Positions 26,073 through 57,391 of a stretch of 64,000 nt of DNA are shown here, piece by piece. The notes under the pieces are model-generated. The model saw nothing but the letters and a program-made list of their open reading frames with translations. It searched no databases and had not been told where the DNA came from. The stretch lies in sequence record ON470615.2; one strand, 5' to 3'. A program made the position numbers and the translations under genes. Source of the stretch: Escherichia phage vB_EcoM-673R5. How positions within the stretch are numbered: position 1 is the first letter of the stretch; every line of letters begins with the position of its first letter.

Positions 26073-27630
26073 TTCTGCACCTCGCAGCCTTCAATTTCAG
26101 CCACAATCGCATCAATATCTTTGCGCAACTGGTCGATTTTGCTGACCGTGGTTTTCAGCTCAGCATTCAGCTCAGCGATATCGATAATTTCGCGAGTATC
26201 TTTCGCTTCCACATAGCTGCTCACCGACAGGTTATAGTCATTCGCGACAACAGTCTCAAACGCAACAGATTTCGCCAGATGAGCAACATCTTCCTTGCTG
26301 GCAAATACCTGCATAATTTTTTCGATATGGGCATCGGTCAGGATGTTGTTGTTAGTCTCTTTTTTGAACAGTTCGCTGGCGTCAATAAACTGAACTTTGG
26401 TATCCGTTTTATGTTTAGACAGAACCAGAATGTTTACGGCAATGGTGGTGCCAAAGAACAGGTTCGGAGCCAGTGAAATCACGGTTTCGACATAGTTATT
26501 ATCGACCAGATACTGACGGATTTTCTGCTCCGCGCCGCCACGGTAAAAAATGCCTGGGAAGCAGACAATCGCAGCGCGACCTTTGGCCGAAAGATAGTTC
26601 AGCGCATGTAATACAAACGCAAAGTCAGCTTTGGATTTGGGGGCCAGAACGCCAGCCGGGGCAAAACGTTCATCGTTAATCAGCGTCGGGTCATCGCTGC
26701 CAATCCATTTCACCGAATACGGCGGGTTAGAAACGATGGCATCAAACGGTTTTTCATCTCTGAAGTGCGGCTCAGTCAGTGTATTACCCAGCTTGATATC
26801 AAACTTGTCGTAGTTGATGTTGTGCAAAAACATGTTCATACGCGCCAGGTTATAGGTCGTATGGTTGATTTCCTGACCAAAAAAACCTTCTTCGATGATA
26901 TGGTCATCAAACTGTTTTTTAGCCTGCAACAACAGCGAACCGGAGCCTGCTGCCGGGTCGTAGATTTTGTTAACGTGGGTCTGCCCGTGCATAGCCAGTT
27001 GTGCAATCAGCTTAGAGACGTGCTGCGGTGTAAAGAACTCGCCGCCTGACTTACCGGCATTCGCCGCATAGTTAGAAATCAGGAACTCATAGGCGTCACC
27101 GAACAGGTCAATCTGATGTTCGTGGAAGTCACCAAGTTTTAACCCTTCAACCCCTTTCAGAACCGCAGCCAGGCGGGCATTTTTATCCTTAACGGTATTC
27201 CCAGGCGGTTACTGGTTGTATCGAAATCAGCAAACAAACCTTTGATGTCAGCTTCTGAAGGATAACCGTAAGCAGAACTTTCGATAGCAACGAAGATGCT
27301 GTTTAAATCCGCATTCAGTCTGTCATTGGTATTTGCTTTCGCCGCTACGTTGCAGAAAAGCTGACTGGGGTAGATGAAGTAACCTTTGGTTTTGATGGCA
27401 TCGTCTTTAATGTCATCAGTAATTACGCTGTCATCCAGTTTCGCATAACAGATACTGTCATCACCGGCTTCAATATAGCTGGAAAAATTTTCGCTGATAA
27501 AACGGTAAAAAAGCGCGCCCAAAACGTACTGCTTAAAATCCCATCCATCGACTGAACCCCTGACATCGTTAGCAATTTGCCAGATCTGGCGATGAAGCTC
27601 TGCACGTTGTTGAATACTTGTCATTTTCAT
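26069..27630 (-). CDS. hsdM: type I R-M methyltransferase subunit; frameshifts near 27000-27190
   Basis: N-terminus [25 protein letters not shown]; C-terminal fragment with AdoMet motifs ([15 protein letters not shown]). ATGA overlap with hsdS. Confidence 0.85.
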
Positions 27631-27805
27631 CCACTTATTTCAGGTTTAAGTAATTGGATGTGATTCTACAGCACTTGGATGCTTTAGCAGTTCGGACATT
27701 AGGCTACGAATGACCTGCCTAGAGGTTTGTTAAGCCGCAAAGTGCTGGTGCTTTATGCCTGTGAAGTTTATAATTGTGTACACATAACGAGTACACGAGG
27801 TATTT

Positions 27806-38296: not shown

Positions 38297-38852
38297 ATGA
38301 AAACAATCGAACAAAAACTTGAACAGCGCCGCGAGTGGCAGAAGGCTGCCAGAGAACGAGCGATCGCTCGGCAACGGGAAAAGTTGGCTGACCCCGCTTG
38401 GCGAGAATCGCAATATCAGAAAATGCGGGATTCTATCGACCGCCGTATCGCTAAACAGAAAGAGCGCCCACCAGCCAGCAAAACGCGGAAAAGCGCGGTA
38501 AAAATAAAATCTCGTGGCTTGAAGGGAGAACACCAACGGCGGAGGAACGGCGCATCGCCAATGCTCTTGGCGCTCTCCCTGCATTGCCTGCTACATGCAT
38601 GGAGTAATATCTGAAGAGGTATCTCTGCACCATATCTCGGTCGTACCGCGCCGGGTTGTCACAAAAAGCAATTGCCCCTTTGTAGATGGCACCACCAGCA
38701 TGCAGCACCGGCTGAAGTAAGAGAAAAATACCCTGGCTGGTCCCTGTTCATGCCGATGGTGTGGTTGGAGGCAAGAAAGAATTCACCTTGCTGAACAAGT
38801 CAGAGATGGAGTTGCTGGCTGACGCCTATGAGATGGCAAACATCATGCACTA
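38297..38852 (+). CDS. ref: Ref recombination-enhancement HNH endonuclease; frameshifts from about 38525
   Basis: N-terminus MKTIEQKLEQRREWQKAARERAIARQREKLADPAWRESQYQKMRDSIDRRIAKQKERPPASK; other frames give VSLHHIS and GVVGGKKEFTLLNKSEMELLADAYEMANIMH. Confidence 0.75.
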
Positions 38853-39041
38853 ATAAATATATTATTTTTAATCTGAAATAATTGACAACTGACAAGTGAC
38901 TTCAGTCAGAATCATCACATGCCCGGTACGGATGGATCCCTTTTCAAATATTCCATGGACGGCACAGTCTGAGTACCGGGCGCTACCTTCAGTTGTATTG
39001 CTAAGCCGCCGCTGGTGGCTTTTCTTTTTGTAGGGGGCGCT

Positions 39042-39774: not shown

Positions 39775-40883
39775 ATGAAAGCAATGGGGAATGAAGTTTA
39801 TCAAAGTCAAAAATGCAAGTTGAAATATTCAAAATCTCAAATTGATAGGGCTGCTCAATTGATAAGGCACGGGTGTAGTGACGAAGAAAGGCAGCAATCT
39901 ATTGAAATGATACAAAATTTCCGTGAGCTGCATCTTTATCCATTAATGCTCATGAAAAATCATTTAGCAAGAGCAGCTGCTAAGGTTGACAAGGACAAAA
40001 AGATTCTCGTTGCAAGAAGACTTAAGCGACTTTCTACCATAATAGATAAACTAGAGCGTCCTAGTCTTGATGGAGGCAGAACTAGCAATGCAATTAAATT
40101 AACACGGATGCAGGACGTTGGCGGATGTAGGGCCATTGTCAGAAACTTAGACCAGTTGATACAGCTAAAGGAACGTCTTTTAAAAAGCAAATCTGTTCAT
40201 AGGATTGTTAAAGAGTATGATTATCTTACTCCCAAAGACAGCGGCTATAGTGGAATCCACCTTGCATACAGTTGCTTCGATCAGAAGAGGATCAATATCC
40301 GTGGCGAAAAACAAAGATTGAGATACAGTTAAGAACTCAATTGCAGCATGCTTGGGCTACCAGCCTTGAAATAATTGATACCCTTGAAGGTATCAAGCTG
40401 AAAACTTCAAGTGAAGGGCATCCAGAATGGAGACGATTTTTCTATCTAGCCGGATGTCTTGTAGCGCACGACGAAAAAGCCTGCACTCTTGATGAGCTAG
40501 TTGTATCTCAGTATGAAGGCGAGCTTAAAGAGCTGGAACGGACTTTATCTGTACGGAGGAAACTAAGCACATACACCATCGCCTTAAATTTAACTTCTGA
40601 CGCGAATTTGATTAAGAAGTTGCCAAAAAATCATAAGGGGCATTACTTAGTAACAATGAGAAATGCAGAAAACAAGCCCAATACAAAAAACAAAAAAATG
40701 TTCCTAGTGTCTGTTCGCGCATTTAAAACAAAAGAAGCAGATGAAGCCCTTGAGGCCTTAAATAAAGACGATTCTAATCCTAATGTATTGATATCTGTTC
40801 TCGTTGCTACAGATAACATTAAGTCACTAAAAAAGCCTACCCCAACTATTTTGGCTCAACAAACCAGTTTACAAAATTCTTAG
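39775..40883 (+). CDS. fused RelA/SpoT-synthetase toxin (toxSAS) with C-terminal extension, CapRel-like; one frameshift in the A-run at 40305-40315
   Basis: Synthetase motifs RRLKRLSTIIDKL, DVGGCRAIV, GYSGIHLAY, EIQLRTQLQHAWA; about 140 aa C-terminal extension; no separate antitoxin ORF. AT-rich. Confidence 0.7.
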
Positions 40884-40917
40884 ATAAGCATCTTCGTAAC
40901 GAAGGATAGTTGCTTAA

Positions 40918-50225: not shown

Positions 50226-51480
50226 ACGGCAAACATTCCCAATTCACAGAGTCCGACCTAAACCACATGAAGCGGCTTAGGAATTACAGACTCTCCAAGG
50301 GCTAACACTGCCAGCCCGGCAGCTTTTATATTACGGGCCGCGTTAATATCACGATCATGCTCTGCGCCACATTCCGGGCAGTGCCATTTACGAATATTAA
50401 GAGGCATTTTTTGCATGGTGAAGCCGCAACTGCTGCAACGTTTGGAAGAAGGGAAATACTGGTCGATAGCGACAATGCTACGTCCACCCCATTCTCCTTT
50501 GTACTGGAGTTGGCGTACAAGTTCGCTCCAGCCTGCGTCAGCTATTGCTTTAGACAGCTTCGGGTTACGGATCATGTTTTTCACTTTAAGGGATTCGACG
50601 CAAACAACTTGGTTTTCGTTAATCAGTTTGCGGGACAACTTATGCAGGTTATCCATCCGACAATCGACTATTCTCGCGTGGAGGCGGGCAACCTTTAAAC
50701 GTGCTTTGGCGCGGTTCTTTGAGCCTTTTTGTTTCTTGCTCAATCTGCGCTGTAACACTGCTAATCGCTTCGCGTATTTAGCGTTGTGTCGAGGATTGCC
50801 AGTTTTAAAACCGGTATCGGTGACGAACAAATCTTTTAAACCAATATCAATGCCGACCGTGGAAACGGTGATCGGCAGTGATACAGGCTCAAACTCGCAG
50901 AGACAGGATACAAAATATCGTCCGGCAGCATCCCCTGGTGATAGTGACAGTGGATGGAGCAGACGGCAACGGACGGCTCCAGCGAACATCTAACGGCTCT
51001 TTGCTCTTTGCCATGTACAGCTTGCCGTCACGGTATTTAAATGCGCTGGCAGTTAGTTCTGCGGCCTGTTTATGCCGCTTGCTCTTAAAAACTGGGTATG
51101 CAGCACGCCCGGCGAAAAAGTTAGCAAAAGCCGTTTGTTGGTGGCGCAGAGACTGCTGGAGGGGGACGCAGGAAACGTCATTCAGCCAAGCGAATTCTGG
51201 TTCTTTTTCAGTGCCGTTAATTTGGCGCTGGCTTGTGCATAGCCGACCCTCTCATGGCGTGCGTAGTACGCATCGGTGCGCCAGCGAAGGAGGCTGTTAT
51301 AGACAAAACGCACACACCCAAAAGTCCGGGCTAATAGCTCGGTTTGTTCGGGAGTTGGATAGAATCGATATTTATAGGCACGCTTCATGTTCTATATAAT
51401 ACATTGAAACTAATGAGTATATAAATGAATACACGGACGAAAATGTTATCAAAGCCAATATACCAACAGACATTAGGTAA
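50226..51480 (-). mobile_element. IS200/IS605-family TnpB-only element in the prt-pro intergenic region
   Basis: tnpB fills nearly the whole prt-pro gap with no tnpA. Element ends not resolved. Confidence 0.6.
50258..51388 (-). CDS. tnpB: TnpB (OrfB) RNA-guided nuclease-type transposase accessory protein; frameshifts
   Basis: N-terminus MKRAYKYRFYPTPEQTELLARTFGCVRFVYNS; RuvC-like VGIDIGLKD and CVESLKVKNM; zinc finger CSSCG...CPECGAEHDRDINAARNI. Confidence 0.85.
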
Positions 51481-52819: not shown

Positions 52820-53362
52820 GCCCCGTCAGGCAAAGCTGGCGTTCTTTTTCACGGCGAATCTTTAAACCTCGCAGGGGCACGCCGTTACTGTTCACGAAAT
52901 CAGGGAGATGGTTACACATATTCACCCATTCCCCTTTCTGCGCCCACTTGTGGATGGACGTTTCTACTCGCATGCCTCGCGCTTTGCTGTAGTAGGTCCG
53001 TAAGCTATTGCATCCCATATTGAATGCCGCGCTTGTCATTGCACTGAAGGCATTATCGGGCATGTCTTTGCCCCGGAAGTGCTGATTAATACAGCGTTCA
53101 GCGATCAGGATATTCTTTTCCCAATCAGCGGCGATTTGCTGGTCGGTTTTTCGCACACCCGGCGTTACCCCGTGTGTATTACCGATCCCGTCAGTCCATA
53201 CCCCGCCGGGCACATGTATGGATCACGTCGGCAACCTTCAGCGTTACCAATCAGCTCAAGCCCCGCCTGGTTGGTTCGCACATTGCCATTACCCATCACG
53301 ATGGTAATCATCACCGCGATAGCGCAAATTGCACCGCCTCCTGCGGCTGTTTTTCCCTTCAT
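52806..53362 (-). CDS. lyz: SAR-endolysin (phage lysozyme); one frameshift near 53200
   Basis: N-terminal MKGKTAAGGGAICAIAVMITIVMGNGNVRTNQAGLELIGNAEGCRRDPY; catalytic part GVTPGVRKTDQQIAADWEKNILIAERCINQHF...FNMGCNSLRTYYSKA. Confidence 0.8.
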
Positions 53363-53494
53363 AAAGACCTCATAAGCGAATTTTTTACGCTCCAGGACAA
53401 ACACCCATTCACAGCCAATACCGACTGACTCGATCCTTTAGAAGGCACAGGATAATGCAAATCACTTGTTAGCTACGTTTCAAAGATATACATT

Positions 53495-53511
53495 ATTGCT
53501 CTAATTAATTT
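53495..53511 (+). promoter_or_regulatory. C1 operator upstream of ssb
   Basis: ATTGCTCTAATTAATTT, 16/17 match, 20 bp before the ssb start. Confidence 0.6.
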
Positions 53512-53530
53512 ATTTTATTAGGTAAGATAA

Positions 53531-54019
53531 GTGGCACAACGCGGTGTAAACAAAGTCATCCTGATTGGTACCCTGGGGCAAGACCCGGAGATCAGGTATA
53601 TACCAAATGGCGGAGCGGTCGGAAGACTCAGCATCGCAACGAATGAATCATGGCGCGACAAGCAAACGGGCCAACAGAAAGAGCAAACAGAATGGCATAG
53701 AGTCGTTTTGTTCGGGAAACTTGCTGAAATTGCGAGTGAGTATTTACGAAAAGGTTCTCAGGTCTACATCGAAGGGAAACTTAAAACCCGTAAGTGGACA
53801 GATGACGCCGGTGTAGAACGTTACACGACGGAAATTATCGTCAGCCAGGGCGGAACTATGCAAATGATCGGCGCCCGCCGCGACGATTCACAGTCCTCAA
53901 ATGGCTGGGGGCAATCAAACCAACCTCAAAACCACCAGCAATACAGCGGTGGCGGCAAACCTCAGAGCAGCGCCAATAACGAACCTCCAATGGACTTTGA
54001 CGACGATATTCCGTTTTAG
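53531..54019 (+). CDS. ssb: single-stranded DNA-binding protein
   Basis: 162 aa intact; [26 protein letters not shown]...[32 protein letters not shown]...MDFDDDIPF. Confidence 0.92.
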
Positions 54020-54267
54020 AGTTAACTTGTGAGTTATTTGTAAATAGTTCATACACAGGCCCCTGTTAATACAGGGGATTTTTATTTCTAGTAACTATAA
54101 GAGGTGTTAATTATTAATTGACAATCTTTAGTGTTTCGCGCACCTTGCAAGTATCCAATATTTACTGATTGTGGATGCATAAAGAAGATCCACAGCGTTA
54201 CAAATTTGTATTTCTTTCTTCAGCAATTAAGCAGGCGACTTGCTCTATCCTGCCCAAAGGAACACGT

Positions 54268-55621
54268 ATGACACACTGCAAAGAAAATACTTGGTATGAG
54301 CGTCAAGGGTACAATACCACCCGCCCGAATGAGATAAGGTCGGAGTATGAACGTGATCTTTCCCGGTTAATCCACTCTTCCGCTTTTAGGAGATTACAAT
54401 CGAAGACGCAGGTGTTGGGATTGGGCGAAAGCGATTTCTACCGTACGCGGCTAACTCACTCTATGGAAGTAGCGCAAATTGGCGGCGGTATCTTGTCTCA
54501 GTTGTCTAAGCGCGATACAGATGAGGGGGTAAATTCTTACCTGACCCAAGCCTGATGCAGGCTATCTGCCTTGCTCATGATATAGGACATCCCCCTTCGG
54601 TCATGGTGGTGAGGTCGCACTAAACTACTGCATGAGATCCTATGGCGGCTTTGAAGGTAACGGGCAGACACTGCGTATACTCTCCAAACTGGATAAGTAC
54701 ACCGAAACCAATGGGCTGGATCCCACCCGTAGACTTATTTTAGGCGTACTGAAATATCCAGCAAGCTATTCAGAGGTCGTCAATGAGAGGGCTTACAGCC
54801 AGTTACAGCCAAGAAGCAATGAGTGGTTGTTTAAATCATCCGAATTTAAGCCCCCGAAATGTTACCTGGACTCTGAGGAGAACACTGTTAGATTCGCACT
54901 CCAACCTTTTGATAGTGATGATGTTAAGTTATTCAAAACGGTAAAAACTACCGCGTTGAATAAGCACAAGGAAACAATATATAAAGCACTGGATACAACG
55001 ATTATGGACTTGGCTGATGAGATATCCTACTCACTCCATGATCTTGAAGACGCAATTTCTCTGAAGATGATCGACAAAAAAATGTGGGAGGAGCACTTCG
55101 AGGACAAATCCCATTTATTTGCAGCTTGCCAATGCGACTCGTTTAATCTAAAAGCCGATGATGTAGCTGAAAAACTGTTCGGCGAAAGTTATCTACGCAA
55201 GGAGTGCATAGGGACACTTGTTCATCTGATGATCACTAGCGTTAAGCTTGAAGTGCAGAACTCTGATTTCAAAAGTAAAATTTTACGCTATAAAGTGGCA
55301 CTTCCTGCCGCGGTAGAAGAGTTACGTAAAGCCATTTTTGAGCTGGTTAGGAACAAAGTTATTCAGCACGAAAACGTCCAACTATTAGAGTTCAAAGGTC
55401 AGAAACTGATTGTGGAACTATTCAATGTACTGGCAAATGACCCAATACGTTTTCTCCCGACAGAAACTCGAAAGAAATATAATCAAGAGGAAGCAAAAGG
55501 TGATGATAAAAAAATGCGTGTCATTTGCGACTATGTTTCAGGCATGACAGATGATTACGCTACTCGACTGTATGAGAAAATATTTGTACCGAGAAAAGGC
55601 TCTATTTTTGATAGACTCTGA
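54268..55621 (+). CDS. HD-domain dGTP triphosphohydrolase-like protein; two frameshifts near 54550-54600
   Basis: [12 protein letters not shown] and LAHDIGHPP[F]GHGGE; the second is restored by one T in cccccttcgg. C-terminal [17 protein letters not shown]-rich. Confidence 0.7.
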
Positions 55622-55789
55622 TTTTTTTCTATTATATAGTACGTAGCCGGGTTCCAGAACCGCATAAAATTAGATCTGGATATAATTCATTTAATTATCT
55701 GTTATATGCCAAACATAACGATATATAATAGTGGATTAGATGTTACAACTTGACGCAGAATAAATAGCTTTTATTGGCGCATGATGCAA

Positions 55790-55815
55790 ACCCCGCAATG
55801 AAGCGGGGTTTTAAC
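55790..55815. terminator. bidirectional terminator
   Basis: aaaccccgc-aatgaa-gcggggtttt. Confidence 0.55.
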
Positions 55816-55828
55816 TGTGGTAAATGAG

Positions 55829-56197
55829 TTATAATCTTTTAATCAGGCTCTCAATATTAGTTGGTTCAAAGTAATGCTTATTAACCTCTCCATTTATGAG
55901 GAAACCGTCTTTTAGTAGTCGGTCTAGCTCACGCTCTGCTTCTTTGTTGAACATACCTGGATATATTCTCTTGTACAACTGAAACGTACCATTCATATTC
56001 CTGTAAGCATTCTCAGCAATTTCAATGGAGATTTCATTTCCGGCGTTAAATACAGGAATGAATATCTCAAGAATATCATTCTTTAACTTCTGTTTAAGTT
56101 TCTTTTTTTCAACAATATTAGAATAAAAGATACCTAAAAAAAATGTGCAGATACCAGGAAGCCAATTATTAACGAAAACCTCAGACAAAGCGTCCAC
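55829..56197 (-). CDS. hypothetical membrane-anchored protein, 122 aa, AT-rich
   Basis: Intact ORF with N-terminal hydrophobic segment LPGICTFFLGIFYSNIV. Confidence 0.4.
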   Translation of the reverse strand: MDALSEVFVNNWLPGICTFFLGIFYSNIVEKKKLKQKLKNDILEIFIPVFNAGNEISIEIAENAYRNMNGTFQLYKRIYPGMFNKEAERELDRLLKDGFLINGEVNKHYFEPTNIESLIKRL

Positions 56198-56321
56198 TAT
56201 CTTACTCCAGAGTTAAGATTGATTCTCATAACGCACAAACTCCGTTCAAGGCGATTTTTATATTACAAACTATACATAAACGCTGATCAATATCTCCAGA
56301 TTTTGTGTGCCTGTGCATGAA

Positions 56322-56338
56322 TATGCACTAATCATAAT
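56322..56338 (+). promoter_or_regulatory. C1 operator-like sequence (ATGCACTAATCATAATC)
   Basis: Shares the ATGCACTAAT core with the variants at 38844, 35611 and 16466. Confidence 0.3.
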
Positions 56339-56403
56339 CGACCAGAACTTCCGTTAATCGCTAAACTCGAACGATTCTAGCCACATAGACGATCTGTTAG
56401 TAT

Positions 56404-56712
56404 CTAATATACAAACTGATCCACATGATCACCCAAATCATCGTCGTCGTCCTCATCGCCACCATCTACTGCTGGCCAATCAACAAACCAGCCAGCGTAA
56501 AGATGCAGCGTTCGGAGAACATCACTTGCGGGAGCATCAAGGGTGTTAACGAATCCCATATAGCTATTGGGATTTGCTCCAGCTATGGCTTCAGCGATCA
56601 TGTCCTCGGTAATGTCACCGGAGATAATGCTTAAACGCCCGGAAACTTCTTCATTATCATCAAATTCGATAATGGCATCTCCACCTAATGGCGCTGCGAT
56701 TTTAATCTGCAT
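56404..56712 (-). CDS. acidic hypothetical protein, 102 aa
   Basis: Intact ORF ending in a D-rich tail (DGGDEDDDDDLGD). Confidence 0.35.
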   Translation of the reverse strand: MQIKIAAPLGGDAIIEFDDNEEVSGRLSIISGDITEDMIAEAIAGANPNSYMGFVNTLDAPASDVLRTLHLYAGWFVDWPAVDGGDEDDDDDLGDHVDQFVY

Positions 56713-57391
56713 TATTTAGCTCCTTTGCCACACCTAATAACAGTTCCAGCAATCCGTCACCATTCATCAGTGATGCGGCAGCGGCCTCTTTGTCATGATA
56801 CAACTGAAGAGCCATAGAGAATACTTCCGTTGCTGACGTTTTGGAAATAGTCGGTGATTTCTGCCGAATTTTCCCGGTGTTACTTACTGAGGCTGGCGGG
56901 TATACCTTCGCCATATAAATATTACTCAATCGAGATCTGAAGCACCATTCAGGCTTGCCACGCCCACCGATATTGACGAAAGATGGCTTATCCCCTTCAA
57001 CATTGGCCTTCAGGAATGACCGGGCTTTCTCTAACAAACCAGGGTTACTGTACTCAAGATGATGACCCAGCTCGTGCCACAGTGCACTTGCATTTTCATC
57101 GTTCAAATTGACAGCAACAACACCATTAAGATTTGCATACGCCCTACCCTTGTGGTGAATTACCCTTGATAAGGTTGATATTTTCCCGCCGGTCAGGCGA
57201 TAAATATCAGCAAGTTCCTTGCGCAGGTCTATTCCACCATTCTGTCCAGCGCGGGCTTCTTCCACTTCTTCCGTGATAAAAGAGTCGGCCCACTCAAGAG
57301 CTTTTTCTTCAGATACGGATGAGTTGGCAATCGCACTGTTCATGGCAGATAACACTTTCTCGTGGACCGAACCCATACTTTGCTGATTCAT
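56702..57391 (-). CDS. HExxH-motif protein (putative zinc metallopeptidase-like), 229 aa
   Basis: ALWHELGHHLEYSNPG. Confidence 0.4.
   Translation of the reverse strand: MNQQSMGSVHEKVLSAMNSAIANSSVSEEKALEWADSFITEEVEEARAGQNGGIDLRKELADIYRLTGGKISTLSRVIHHKGRAYANLNGVVAVNLNDENASALWHELGHHLEYSNPGLLEKARSFLKANVEGDKPSFVNIGGRGKPEWCFRSRLSNIYMAKVYPPASVSNTGKIRQKSPTISKTSATEVFSMALQLYHDKEAAAASLMNGDGLLELLLGVAKELNNAD

Follow-up and report, generated by a model that had tools for sequence, protein, structure and literature searches.

A predicted single-gene anti-phage dGTPase and an unrelated 122-aa protein gene in the ssb–hxr cargo slot of a P1-like phage-plasmid

The closest described system to the one considered here is Sp-dGTPase of Shewanella putrefaciens CN-32 (Tal et al. 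2022), an HD + HD_assoc protein with an H...HD...D metal site and an HxxE dyad, which acts as a single-gene system. Sp-type dGTPases defended as single cloned genes, the D101A mutation in Sp-dGTPase abolished defense, and an identity to Sp-dGTPase of at least 45% is the level at which homologs adjoin defense systems or islands (Tal et al.). During infection, members of the family deplete dGTP, and phage entry is not blocked (Tal et al. preprint). Depletion of dGTP together with lowered phage plating has been shown both for Sp-dGTPase and for the dGTPase of Escherichia coli G177, which protected against phages (Tal et al.). Within the same HD dGTPase superfamily, the Clover CloA and octameric Vdg dGTPases (PDB 9P8S-V, 9VWA) also have a defense role, and CloA requires the nucleotidyltransferase CloB. 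E. coli Dgt (PDB 4X9E), a 505-aa housekeeping enzyme that is not enriched in defense islands, and human SAMHD1 share the common HD-domain dNTP triphosphohydrolase chemistry. A 2025 preprint lists dGTPase as a common defense gene of E. coli P1-like elements.

The present analysis concerns a gene of this kind on a P1-like phage-plasmid, Escherichia phage vB_EcoM-673R5 (ON470615.2), of which a stretch of 64,000 nucleotides, here called the window, was analyzed. The gene lies in a lower-GC insert, window positions 54020-56403, whose limits are exactly the stop codons of two convergent genes, ssb and hxr (Table 1). Very probably, the insert is the occupant of a cargo slot that contains an intact anti-phage dGTPase of the Sp-dGTPase clade and an unrelated 122-aa gene, the breaks in the dGTPase reading frame being sequencing errors. 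The dGTPase finding is already known, given the RefSeq name of the protein, the published genetics, biochemistry, and structures of the family, and the reported carriage by P1-like phage-plasmids; it is real but ordinary and has little weight as a discovery. The precise borders of the ssb–hxr slot help to catalogue the cargo of P1-like elements.

Table 1. Features of the insert and of the genes that border it, in window coordinates
Feature	Position	Strand	Basis
C1 operator Ossb/Op21, upstream of ssb, in the flanking backbone	53495..53511	+	1 mismatch to ATTGCTCTAATAAATTT; 25.6 bits
ssb, left border gene	53531..54019	+	NCBIfam SSB models
Intrinsic-terminator-like hairpin with T tract, directly after ssb, inside the insert	54060..54087	+	terminator scan
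Anti-phage dGTPase gene (predicted), HD + HD_assoc	54268..55621	+	WP_000148486.1, NF041026, PADLOC, Pfam, PDB 9P8W
First frameshift, codons 87-88: G5 here, G6 in all close relatives	54525..54529	+	pairwise alignments
Second frameshift, codons 109-110, inside HDIGHPPFGH: C5 here, C6 in relatives	54591..54595	+	alignments
Small-gene module, hairpin + 122-aa gene	55726..56253	-	~78% identity to dGTPase-less E. coli chromosomal islands
GC-rich hairpin AAACCCCGC-AATGAA-GCGGGGTTT between the convergent genes	55788..55811	.	folding energy
122-aa protein gene, WP_000339558.1, phrog_26730	55829..56197	-	ORF; phrog_26730, 258 bits
Sigma-70-like promoter match, the sole one upstream of the small gene	56269..56298	-	TGGAGA, 18 nt, TATAGT; 9/12
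Operator-like site TATGCACTAATCATAAT	56322..56338	+	chance-level partial match to C1 operator
hxr, right border gene	56404..56712	-	phrog_2292; P1 hxr/ddrB homology from 56405

Relation of the dGTPase to described enzymes

A first-pass annotation, made from the letters of the sequence, had called a Dgt-like HD phosphohydrolase in the island, and an HD-type dGTPase with all the motifs quoted at that stage is indeed present on the plus strand. The intact protein has 451 aa; the window copy lacks two bases and is otherwise identical to WP_000148486.1, which RefSeq names "anti-phage deoxyguanosine triphosphatase." The profile searches that the annotation had recommended gave matches throughout: the repaired protein (WP_000148486.1) scores 571.4 bits against NCBIfam NF041026 (cut-off 400), 562 bits against NF003701 (cut-off 383), and 493 bits against the PADLOC dGTPase model, and its Pfam domains are HD (PF01966) at residues 61-134 and HD_assoc (PF13286) at residues 345-437. 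Among solved structures the best match is PDB 9P8W (E 3e-158), the dGTPase of Shewanella putrefaciens that served as a defense control; identity to it is 57.5% over 452 alignment columns, which span the full length, and exceeds the 45% level of Tal et al. In this alignment H64, H104-D105, H113, E116, and D251, which make up the metal-binding site and the catalytic H/E dyad, are identical, and D105 aligns with Sp-dGTPase D101, so that the catalytic residues are kept. The two enzymes share the HD + HD_assoc architecture and are of similar length (451 vs. 462 aa) but come from different hosts; the carrier here is a P1-like phage-plasmid, and the window copy is frameshifted. The curated NCBIfam and PADLOC matches, the conserved residues, and the identity to Sp-dGTPase support the view that a defense-type dGTPase is carried as variable cargo, and the gene belongs, as far as sequence can tell, to the Sp-dGTPase clade of single-gene anti-phage enzymes.

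For the E. coli G177 dGTPase (Tal et al., Table S5), the comparison covered 133 N-terminal residues, from the opening 400 nt of the gene that had been tested, and gave 83.5% identity; a 3-residue indel and divergence in the loop at residues 80-90 mark it as another allele. Chromosomal E. coli anti-phage dGTPases (e.g., WP_048216953.1) bear the same RefSeq name, have 66-79% nucleotide identity, and are on the chromosome rather than a plasmid; in the one neighborhood inspected, the dGTPase is a lone gene, the island also contains methylase and deazaguanine-type genes, and no homolog of the small gene is nearby. Clover CloA and Vdg are distant matches (E 1e-22 to 1e-45, mostly in the N-terminal part), and examination of ORFs and Pfam matches revealed no nucleotidyltransferase gene in the insert. 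The match to E. coli Dgt is weak (E 6e-24 over residues 13-124).

A replaceable slot between ssb and hxr

The low GC content claimed for the segment is borne out, at 0.397 in 54020-56404 vs. 0.49 on each flank; that of the small gene is 0.336. Local blastn places the breakpoints relative to P1, P7, SJ46, and Ro157c2 at the stop codons of the two border genes. On the left, homology to all four stops at 54017-54021, and the ssb stop codon (54017-54019) forms the edge of the slot; on the right, where the edge is the stop codon (56404-56406) of hxr, the final gene of the minus-strand dar/ddr operon, homology restarts at 56405-56406 in P1, P7, and SJ46 and at 56437 in Ro157c2YLVW. A comparison of gene content at the ssb junction had been proposed in the first-pass annotation. 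P1, P7, and SJ46 have the same insertion point, bounded by both stop codons, but different cargo: isaA-IS1-isaB in P1, the porin gene nmpC in P7, and other, hypothetical ORFs in SJ46 and Ro157c2. The segment is thus not part of the core of P1-like phages, since homology to P1, P7, and SJ46 breaks at both borders, and 54020-56403 occupies a slot between convergent ssb and hxr in which the cargo can be replaced.

The distribution of the insert is patchy. It is present in 53 of ~500 PLSDB plasmid records with a P1-type ssb and, in a set of 5,426 complete E. coli genomes, on 64 plasmids, with no copy less than 99% identical, and the dGTPase is absent from ~90% of P1-type plasmids. None of 19 P1-like phage records has the insert, and a megablast search of 50,697 phage records with it gave no match; in that collection its flanks matched 19 P1-like phages. 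From the limits of local blastn matches, the insert is of composite origin and has its seam near 55726, and the slot in this lineage holds two independent pieces, the dGTPase and the small gene. In 53900-56520, a search for terminal direct or inverted repeats returned only short chance matches. Because terminal repeats are lacking there, nothing points to transposition or site-specific insertion, and the cargo was more likely exchanged through recombination within the conserved genes on either side. An Rfam scan of 53300-56900 for structured RNA gave only a sub-threshold chance match to GIR1 (19 bits vs. a gathering score of 100).

Two one-base deletions in the dGTPase gene

As sequenced, the dGTPase is spread over three reading frames and has no single uninterrupted one. 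The first-pass annotation had spoken of a one-base repair; two are needed, one in a run of G and one in a run of C, at sites placed by pairwise alignments to NZ_CP027133.1 and NZ_CP103764.1 (Table 1). The HD motif lies in a frame that differs from those of the N-terminal and C-terminal parts, and because it is out of frame with both ends, the gene as sequenced would be unable to yield an active enzyme.

Taken at face value, two deletions that bracket the HD motif would describe a decaying pseudogene, lost perhaps since dGTP depletion costs the phage-plasmid or its host, and nucleotide-depleting effectors are indeed described as toxic when unregulated (PMC12265719). We nevertheless regard real decay as improbable. 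The same bias toward deletions runs through the whole window, which has 78 deletions and 12 insertions relative to its nearest relative; in the 24 kb around the dGTPase the same comparison gives 25 indel positions, 21 of them bases absent from the window, vs. 4 substitutions. Many of the missing bases fall in 4-6 nt runs of one base. The genes lyz, ddrB, and those on the darB side are also hit, and so many independent decays with so few substitutions are implausible. Moreover, near-identical copies of the dGTPase elsewhere are, among the matches listed, nearly all annotated as full-length CDS. The window-wide excess of deletions and the preponderance of indels over substitutions thus mark the breaks as artifacts: by their error signature, they are almost certainly homopolymer sequencing errors rather than decay, which in turn implies that the actual gene is unbroken. 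At the G and C runs, phase variation and programmed frameshifting were rejected, because the runs are short (6 nt), two independent changes would be required, and the type of error is window-wide. One-base deletions, many of which fall in homopolymers, are so frequent in the window that a gene that looks broken, wherever it lies there, is unsafe to read as biology.

The 122-aa gene, local signals, and the role of the insert

The convergent 122-aa ORF of the first-pass annotation was found on the minus strand. Its product matches no model in Pfam, NCBIfam, or PADLOC and falls in PHROGs into an unnamed family only. Its N-terminal helix is moderately hydrophobic and precedes a lysine-rich stretch, and the best 19-residue Kyte-Doolittle mean of the protein, 1.39, is below the usual transmembrane cut-off of ~1.6; the earlier description "membrane-anchored" is thus at most marginally indicated. 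Alignment of 17 homologs reveals the invariant motif KLxQKLKxDILEIFIPVFN, and an AlphaFold model built with them is mostly helical (pLDDT 72), with one long helix at residues 2-55 (pLDDT 54-79), for which Foldseek against the PDB returned nothing better than E = 1, and generic helical bundles only. An exhaustive search of 1.84 billion proteins with a profile of the family recovered only 13 representatives, all short, and no fusions.

The first-pass annotation had read the dGTPase and the small gene as a superinfection-exclusion module; in such a two-gene defense or exclusion module, the small protein could, for instance, be a sensor, regulator, or second effector. The two genes are together in every P1-like copy found, and some dGTPases require a partner, as CloA is described to require CloB. 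The co-occurrence, however, has no weight, because the P1-borne copies, being at least 99% identical, represent one acquisition. Relatives of the small gene at 84 E. coli chromosomal places (distant blastn) and homologs in Salmonella, Yersinia, Vibrio, Marinomonas, and Rheinheimera have no adjoining dGTPase, nor was one adjacent in any of the nine non-P1 small-gene contexts examined (ten with both Yersinia enterocolitica contigs). Chromosomal dGTPase homologs, for their part, were found in 28 places, and the homolog in the one neighborhood inspected stands alone. The protection afforded by Sp-type dGTPases as single cloned genes, the convergent orientation of the two genes, and the seam in the insert DNA argue in the same direction. 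A joint module is therefore quite unlikely; the dGTPase has no partner in the 122-aa gene, and the two are independent.

The neighbors of the small gene elsewhere include a Tiamat/Mokosh-like helicase in E. coli, PDC-S08 in Marinomonas, an AbiV-HEPN and a TIR protein in Yersinia, an Mrr-type nuclease in Vibrio, and, in a metagenome contig, a type III restriction system with a RelA/SpoT protein. The family thus appears to track defense islands, and its putative link to defense is one of guilt by association only. One could speculate, and we would rate the idea as doubtful, that the 122-aa protein is an unrecognised self-contained defense or anti-defense gene product that sits beside changing effectors, the P1 copy perhaps being co-transcribed with the dar anti-restriction operon.

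The hairpin between the convergent genes lies 17 nt beyond the small-gene stop and travels with the small-gene module. Its dG is -16.7 kcal/mol on the plus strand and -17.0 kcal/mol on the minus strand (z -3.2 and -4.4), with short U tracts, of 4 U on plus and 3 U on minus. Of the "bidirectional terminator" proposed earlier, the strong hairpin is confirmed, at about -17 kcal/mol on either strand, but the U tracts of 3-4 nt are weak and the consensus terminator scan makes no call there; it is plausibly a two-way terminator, as predicted from folding, with weak U tracts. The sole terminator call in 53400-56800 is the hairpin directly after ssb (7 pairs, 5 of them GC, tail ATTTTTATTT; dG -12.9 kcal/mol, z -2.7).

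It had also been proposed that an operator-like sequence lies in the promoter region of the small gene, so that P1 C1 would repress it. The consensus used was the asymmetric 17-bp C1 operator ATTGCTCTAATAAATTT, and the positive control for the scan was Ossb/Op21, whose homologous site is annotated Op21 in P1 and P7. The proposed site is upstream of the small gene and has the core TATGCACTAAT in common with a probable operator at 16466-16482. However, it has 7 mismatches to the consensus, is absent from the scan at up to 3 mismatches, and ranks 24th at 10.0 bits, whereas the 16 clear C1 operators of the window (at most 3 mismatches) score at least 20.4 bits each. About 7 sites of 10.0 bits are expected by chance per 64 kb, and in a simulation 41% of AT-rich sequences of the length and composition of the island held such a site. 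Nor does the site overlap a promoter: it is ~24 nt upstream of the sole minus-strand -35-like hexamer. The promoter match that contains this hexamer is itself weak, because the region has 5 matches vs. 7.6 in shuffles. A site of chance-level strength leaves C1 control of the small gene unsupported, and with a family that is mostly found outside P1, such repression is very unlikely.

Other promoter searches bear on both genes. A search with the -22 box of LPlyz recovered LPlyz itself at 53467, and the sole match inside the insert, at 54429 (+), is within the dGTPase coding sequence, so that neither gene has a P1 late promoter upstream. A sigma-70 consensus scan upstream of the dGTPase found none; expression of the dGTPase in the lysogen is therefore assumed.

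If the insert holds an intact Sp-clade dGTPase, as we propose, the enzyme would by homology hydrolyze dGTP to deoxyguanosine and triphosphate upon infection by another phage. The loss of dGTP would starve the DNA replication of the invader, and the lysogen and its resident plasmid-prophage would thereby be protected. The earlier label "superinfection exclusion" fits in that the enzyme is of the defense type, but it is loose, since the family depletes dGTP rather than blocking entry (Tal et al.). Going by the family, the lytic growth of P1 itself would not trigger the dGTPase. A point against the proposed explanation is that a phage with a dGTP-depleting enzyme must itself replicate DNA. The second piece, the 122-aa gene, is unrelated to the first and has a putative terminator hairpin of its own; it belongs to a family of defense and mobile islands in several gammaproteobacteria.

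Finally, a role of the dGTPase in the DNA metabolism of the phage-plasmid itself, balancing dNTP pools rather than serving defense, might be suggested by its position directly downstream of the replication gene ssb and by the existence of housekeeping dGTPases such as E. coli Dgt, but it is hardly credible, given that the gene is lacking in ~90% of P1-type plasmids and in 19/19 phage records, that it matches Dgt weakly and in the N-terminal part only but the defense clade strongly, that a terminator lies between ssb and the dGTPase, and that its GC content is unlike that of the backbone.

The dGTPase gene between ssb and hxr

The first-pass annotation described window 54020-56400, between ssb and the minus-strand dar/lyd-type operon, as an AT-rich cargo island in which an HD-type dGTPase and a small gene would form a superinfection-exclusion module. 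The observation is real, with corrections, and its interpretation is right on the dGTPase and the cargo status and wrong on the two-gene module and a proposed operator; the finding as a whole is already known. The layout was described correctly, since the ORF listing, direct reading of the sequence, and GC values agree on ORF order, strands, and the dip in composition: GC is 0.397 over 54020-56404 versus 0.49 on either flank, and drops to 0.336 within the small gene.

Features of the window from ssb to hxr
Feature	Position	Strand	Basis or remark
ssb	53531-54019	+	ORF listing, direct reading
Terminator-like hairpin with T tract	54060-54087	+	
HD-phosphohydrolase (dGTPase) gene	54268-55621	+	ATG start; ORF listing, direct reading
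AT-rich spacer, 207 nt			between dGTPase and small gene
GC-rich hairpin in this spacer	55788-55811		
Small gene, 122-aa ORF	55829-56197	-	ORF listing
Spacer, 206 nt			between small gene and hxr
hxr	56404-56712	-	then ddrB and the remaining dar/ddr operon

The repaired dGTPase product is identical to WP_000148486.1, named “anti-phage deoxyguanosine triphosphatase” in RefSeq. It scores 571 bits with NCBIfam NF041026 (cut-off 400), 562 bits with NF003701 (cut-off 383), and 493 bits with the PADLOC dGTPase model; together with the Pfam domains HD and HD_assoc and the conservation of H64, H104-D105, H113, E116, and D251 in the alignment, these matches bear out its assignment as an HD-type dGTPase. 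The closest solved structure, 9P8W (E 3e-158; 57.5% identity across 452 aligned columns), is according to its depositors the Shewanella putrefaciens CN-32 enzyme (Sp-dGTPase), “previously demonstrated to inhibit phage” (PMC12265719). The protein is 83.5% identical, across the 133 residues comparable, to the dGTPase of E. coli G177, which is likewise protective (Tal et al.), whereas E. coli housekeeping Dgt and the partner-dependent CloA match it weakly. Replacement by alanine of Sp-dGTPase D101, with which D105 of WP_000148486.1 aligns, abolishes defence (Tal et al.). Homologues with 45% identity or more to Sp-dGTPase often adjoin defence systems (58 of 110), and more distant ones do not (Tal et al.); by sequence, WP_000148486.1 belongs to the former, defence-associated group.

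By analogy, on infection the enzyme would strip the triphosphate from dGTP, emptying the dGTP pool such that replication of the invading phage would stall. Mutations that let T7 escape lie in proteins modifying the RNA polymerase of the host (Tal et al.), which suggests that the trigger of the enzyme is some consequence of the phage takeover of transcription. Carried on a plasmid-prophage, it would shield the lysogen, and hence the element itself, from other phages.

In the window sequence the gene is spread over three reading frames: the N-terminal frame ends at a stop at 54555, the middle frame holds LAHDIGHPP, and the third runs from FGHGGE to the gene end. When the whole insert is aligned with that of the near-identical plasmid NZ_CP027133.1, two differences appear and no others: a G6 run (54525-54529 in the window) is one G short, and a C6 run (54591-54595) one C short; thus, the repair proposed earlier was needed, but it takes two bases, not one. 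Compared with the nearest relative, NZ_CP103764.1, window 40000-64000 has 4 substitutions and 25 indel positions, 21 of which are bases absent from the window, many in 4-6-nt homopolymer runs. The entire window has ~90 one-base indels relative to NZ_CP103764.1, of which 78 are deletions and 12 insertions (for example, at 40285, 42581, 44296, 47577, 53201, 57495, and 61464); many fall in homopolymer runs, and the indels split lyz, ddrB, a large methylase gene, and other conserved genes. Because the indel to substitution ratio is so high and the deletion bias so strong, the breaks in the dGTPase gene point to an error-prone assembly that was left unpolished, not to decay of the gene, and the gene is very probably intact in the real molecule. 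Apparent pseudogenes anywhere in the window are best regarded as artefacts of sequencing.

A variable cargo slot

Homology to P1, P7, and SJ46 stops at 54017-54021, the ssb stop codon, and restarts at 56405-56406, the hxr stop codon; for Ro157c2YLVW it restarts at 56437. The slot is occupied by isaA-IS1-isaB in P1, the porin gene nmpC in P7, a hypothetical gene and isaA in SJ46, and three hypothetical genes in Ro157c2YLVW. These breaks and varying occupants confirm that the segment is cargo rather than core. The dGTPase insert is present in 53 of the 500 PLSDB plasmids with a P1-type ssb. A search of 5,426 complete E. coli genomes located it on 64 plasmids, with identities of 99% or more throughout, and a search of 50,697 phage records located no copy. 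No terminal repeats were found flanking it, which makes exchange through the conserved flanks the likeliest route. The presence of dGTPases on P1-like elements is already known: CapRel or dGTPase systems are common on those of E. coli, according to a 2025 preprint about P1/D6 phage-plasmids (10.1101/2025.09.12.675607).

A RelA/SpoT-domain gene at ~39784-40909 (+), whose product has 375 aa in an intact relative and matches PADLOC candidate PDC-S33 (287 bits), probably corresponds to the CapRel-type defence gene described for P1-like elements of E. coli; two one-base deletions (40285 and 40829) interrupt it in the window. Predicted type I restriction-modification genes (hsdR, hsdS, and hsdM) would lie at ~21600-27650 (-), by annotation and coordinates transferred from the near-identical NZ_CP103764.1; if they are counted, the defence loci of the element would number three or more. 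At ~50260-51390 (-), a gene for a TnpB-family RNA-guided endonuclease (IS200/IS605-type) is flanked by a 573-aa hypothetical gene and a head-processing gene, after which NZ_CP027133.1 has an extra IS200C tnpA.

The small gene, an independent passenger

The 122-aa product is identical to WP_000339558.1 and matches only phrog_26730, an unnamed family, with no match in Pfam, NCBIfam, or PADLOC. In an alignment, 17 homologues share the invariant block KLxQKLKxDILEIFIPVFN, which follows a moderately hydrophobic N-terminal helix. The family has 13 representatives, each at most 150 aa, among 1.84 billion proteins, and no fold relative was found for a mostly helical model (pLDDT 72).

Window 55726-56253 comprises the spacer hairpin, the small gene, and 56 nt 5′ of it; 84 E. 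coli chromosomes without the dGTPase carry this stretch at ~78% identity. None of the contexts of the small-gene family elsewhere has a dGTPase. In E. coli the neighbour is a 1,589-aa helicase similar to Tiamat TmtA and Mokosh MkoA; in Salmonella the gene lies in an island of methylase, Eco57I-type, and anti-restriction genes; in Marinomonas it adjoins defence candidate PDC-S08, in Yersinia kristensenii AbiV-type HEPN and TIR proteins, and in Vibrio an Mrr-type nuclease. On a metagenome contig it accompanies a type III restriction system and a RelA/SpoT protein, and in Enterobacter it is on a small plasmid. The chromosomal dGTPase homologue inspected stands alone. On this evidence the two genes do not form the module first proposed; the small gene turns up repeatedly in defence and mobile islands and is a passenger separate from the dGTPase.

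The Marinomonas neighbour (L012, 3889-4884; 331 aa) has a Pfam 5-nucleotidase domain and matches the PADLOC single-gene defence candidate PDC-S08 (E 1e-117). With the dGTPase, it brings the nucleotide-metabolising neighbours of the family to two. In both the Salmonella island (L007, 6939-7376, -) and a metagenome contig (L024, 6781-7218, -), the small-gene homologue has downstream of it a 145-aa ORF on the other strand, perhaps a conserved neighbour, which the P1 insert lacks.

Regulatory sequences

The spacer hairpin had been read as a bidirectional terminator. It is indeed stable on either strand, but has only short U tracts and belongs to the small-gene unit; it probably terminates the small-gene transcript and perhaps also that of the dGTPase. 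The terminator scan made no call between hxr and the small gene, so read-through from the dar operon is an alternative candidate source of small-gene transcription. The hxr product, labelled a possible Xre-homologous repressor in the P1 annotation, has no match in Pfam, NCBIfam, or PADLOC and a strongly acidic C-terminus, which makes the repressor label look weak. A short inverted repeat, TGTGGAT ... ATCCACA, at 54166-54190 (+), ~80 nt 5′ of the dGTPase start, could be a regulator site; no recognisable sigma-70 promoter was found in its region.

The C1 operator consensus has 16 sites with at most 3 mismatches in the window versus 0.35 expected, including the known Ossb (53495-53511). The operator-like sequence proposed upstream of the small gene (56322-56338) is not among them and scores 10.0 bits versus at least 20.4 bits for those sites, a level that arises by chance. 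Two more probable C1 operators, TATGCACTAATTAATTT at 16466-16482 (-) and CATGCACTAATAAATAT at 38844-38860 (+), have intermediate scores of 16-17 bits, below the 16 clear operators and above noise.
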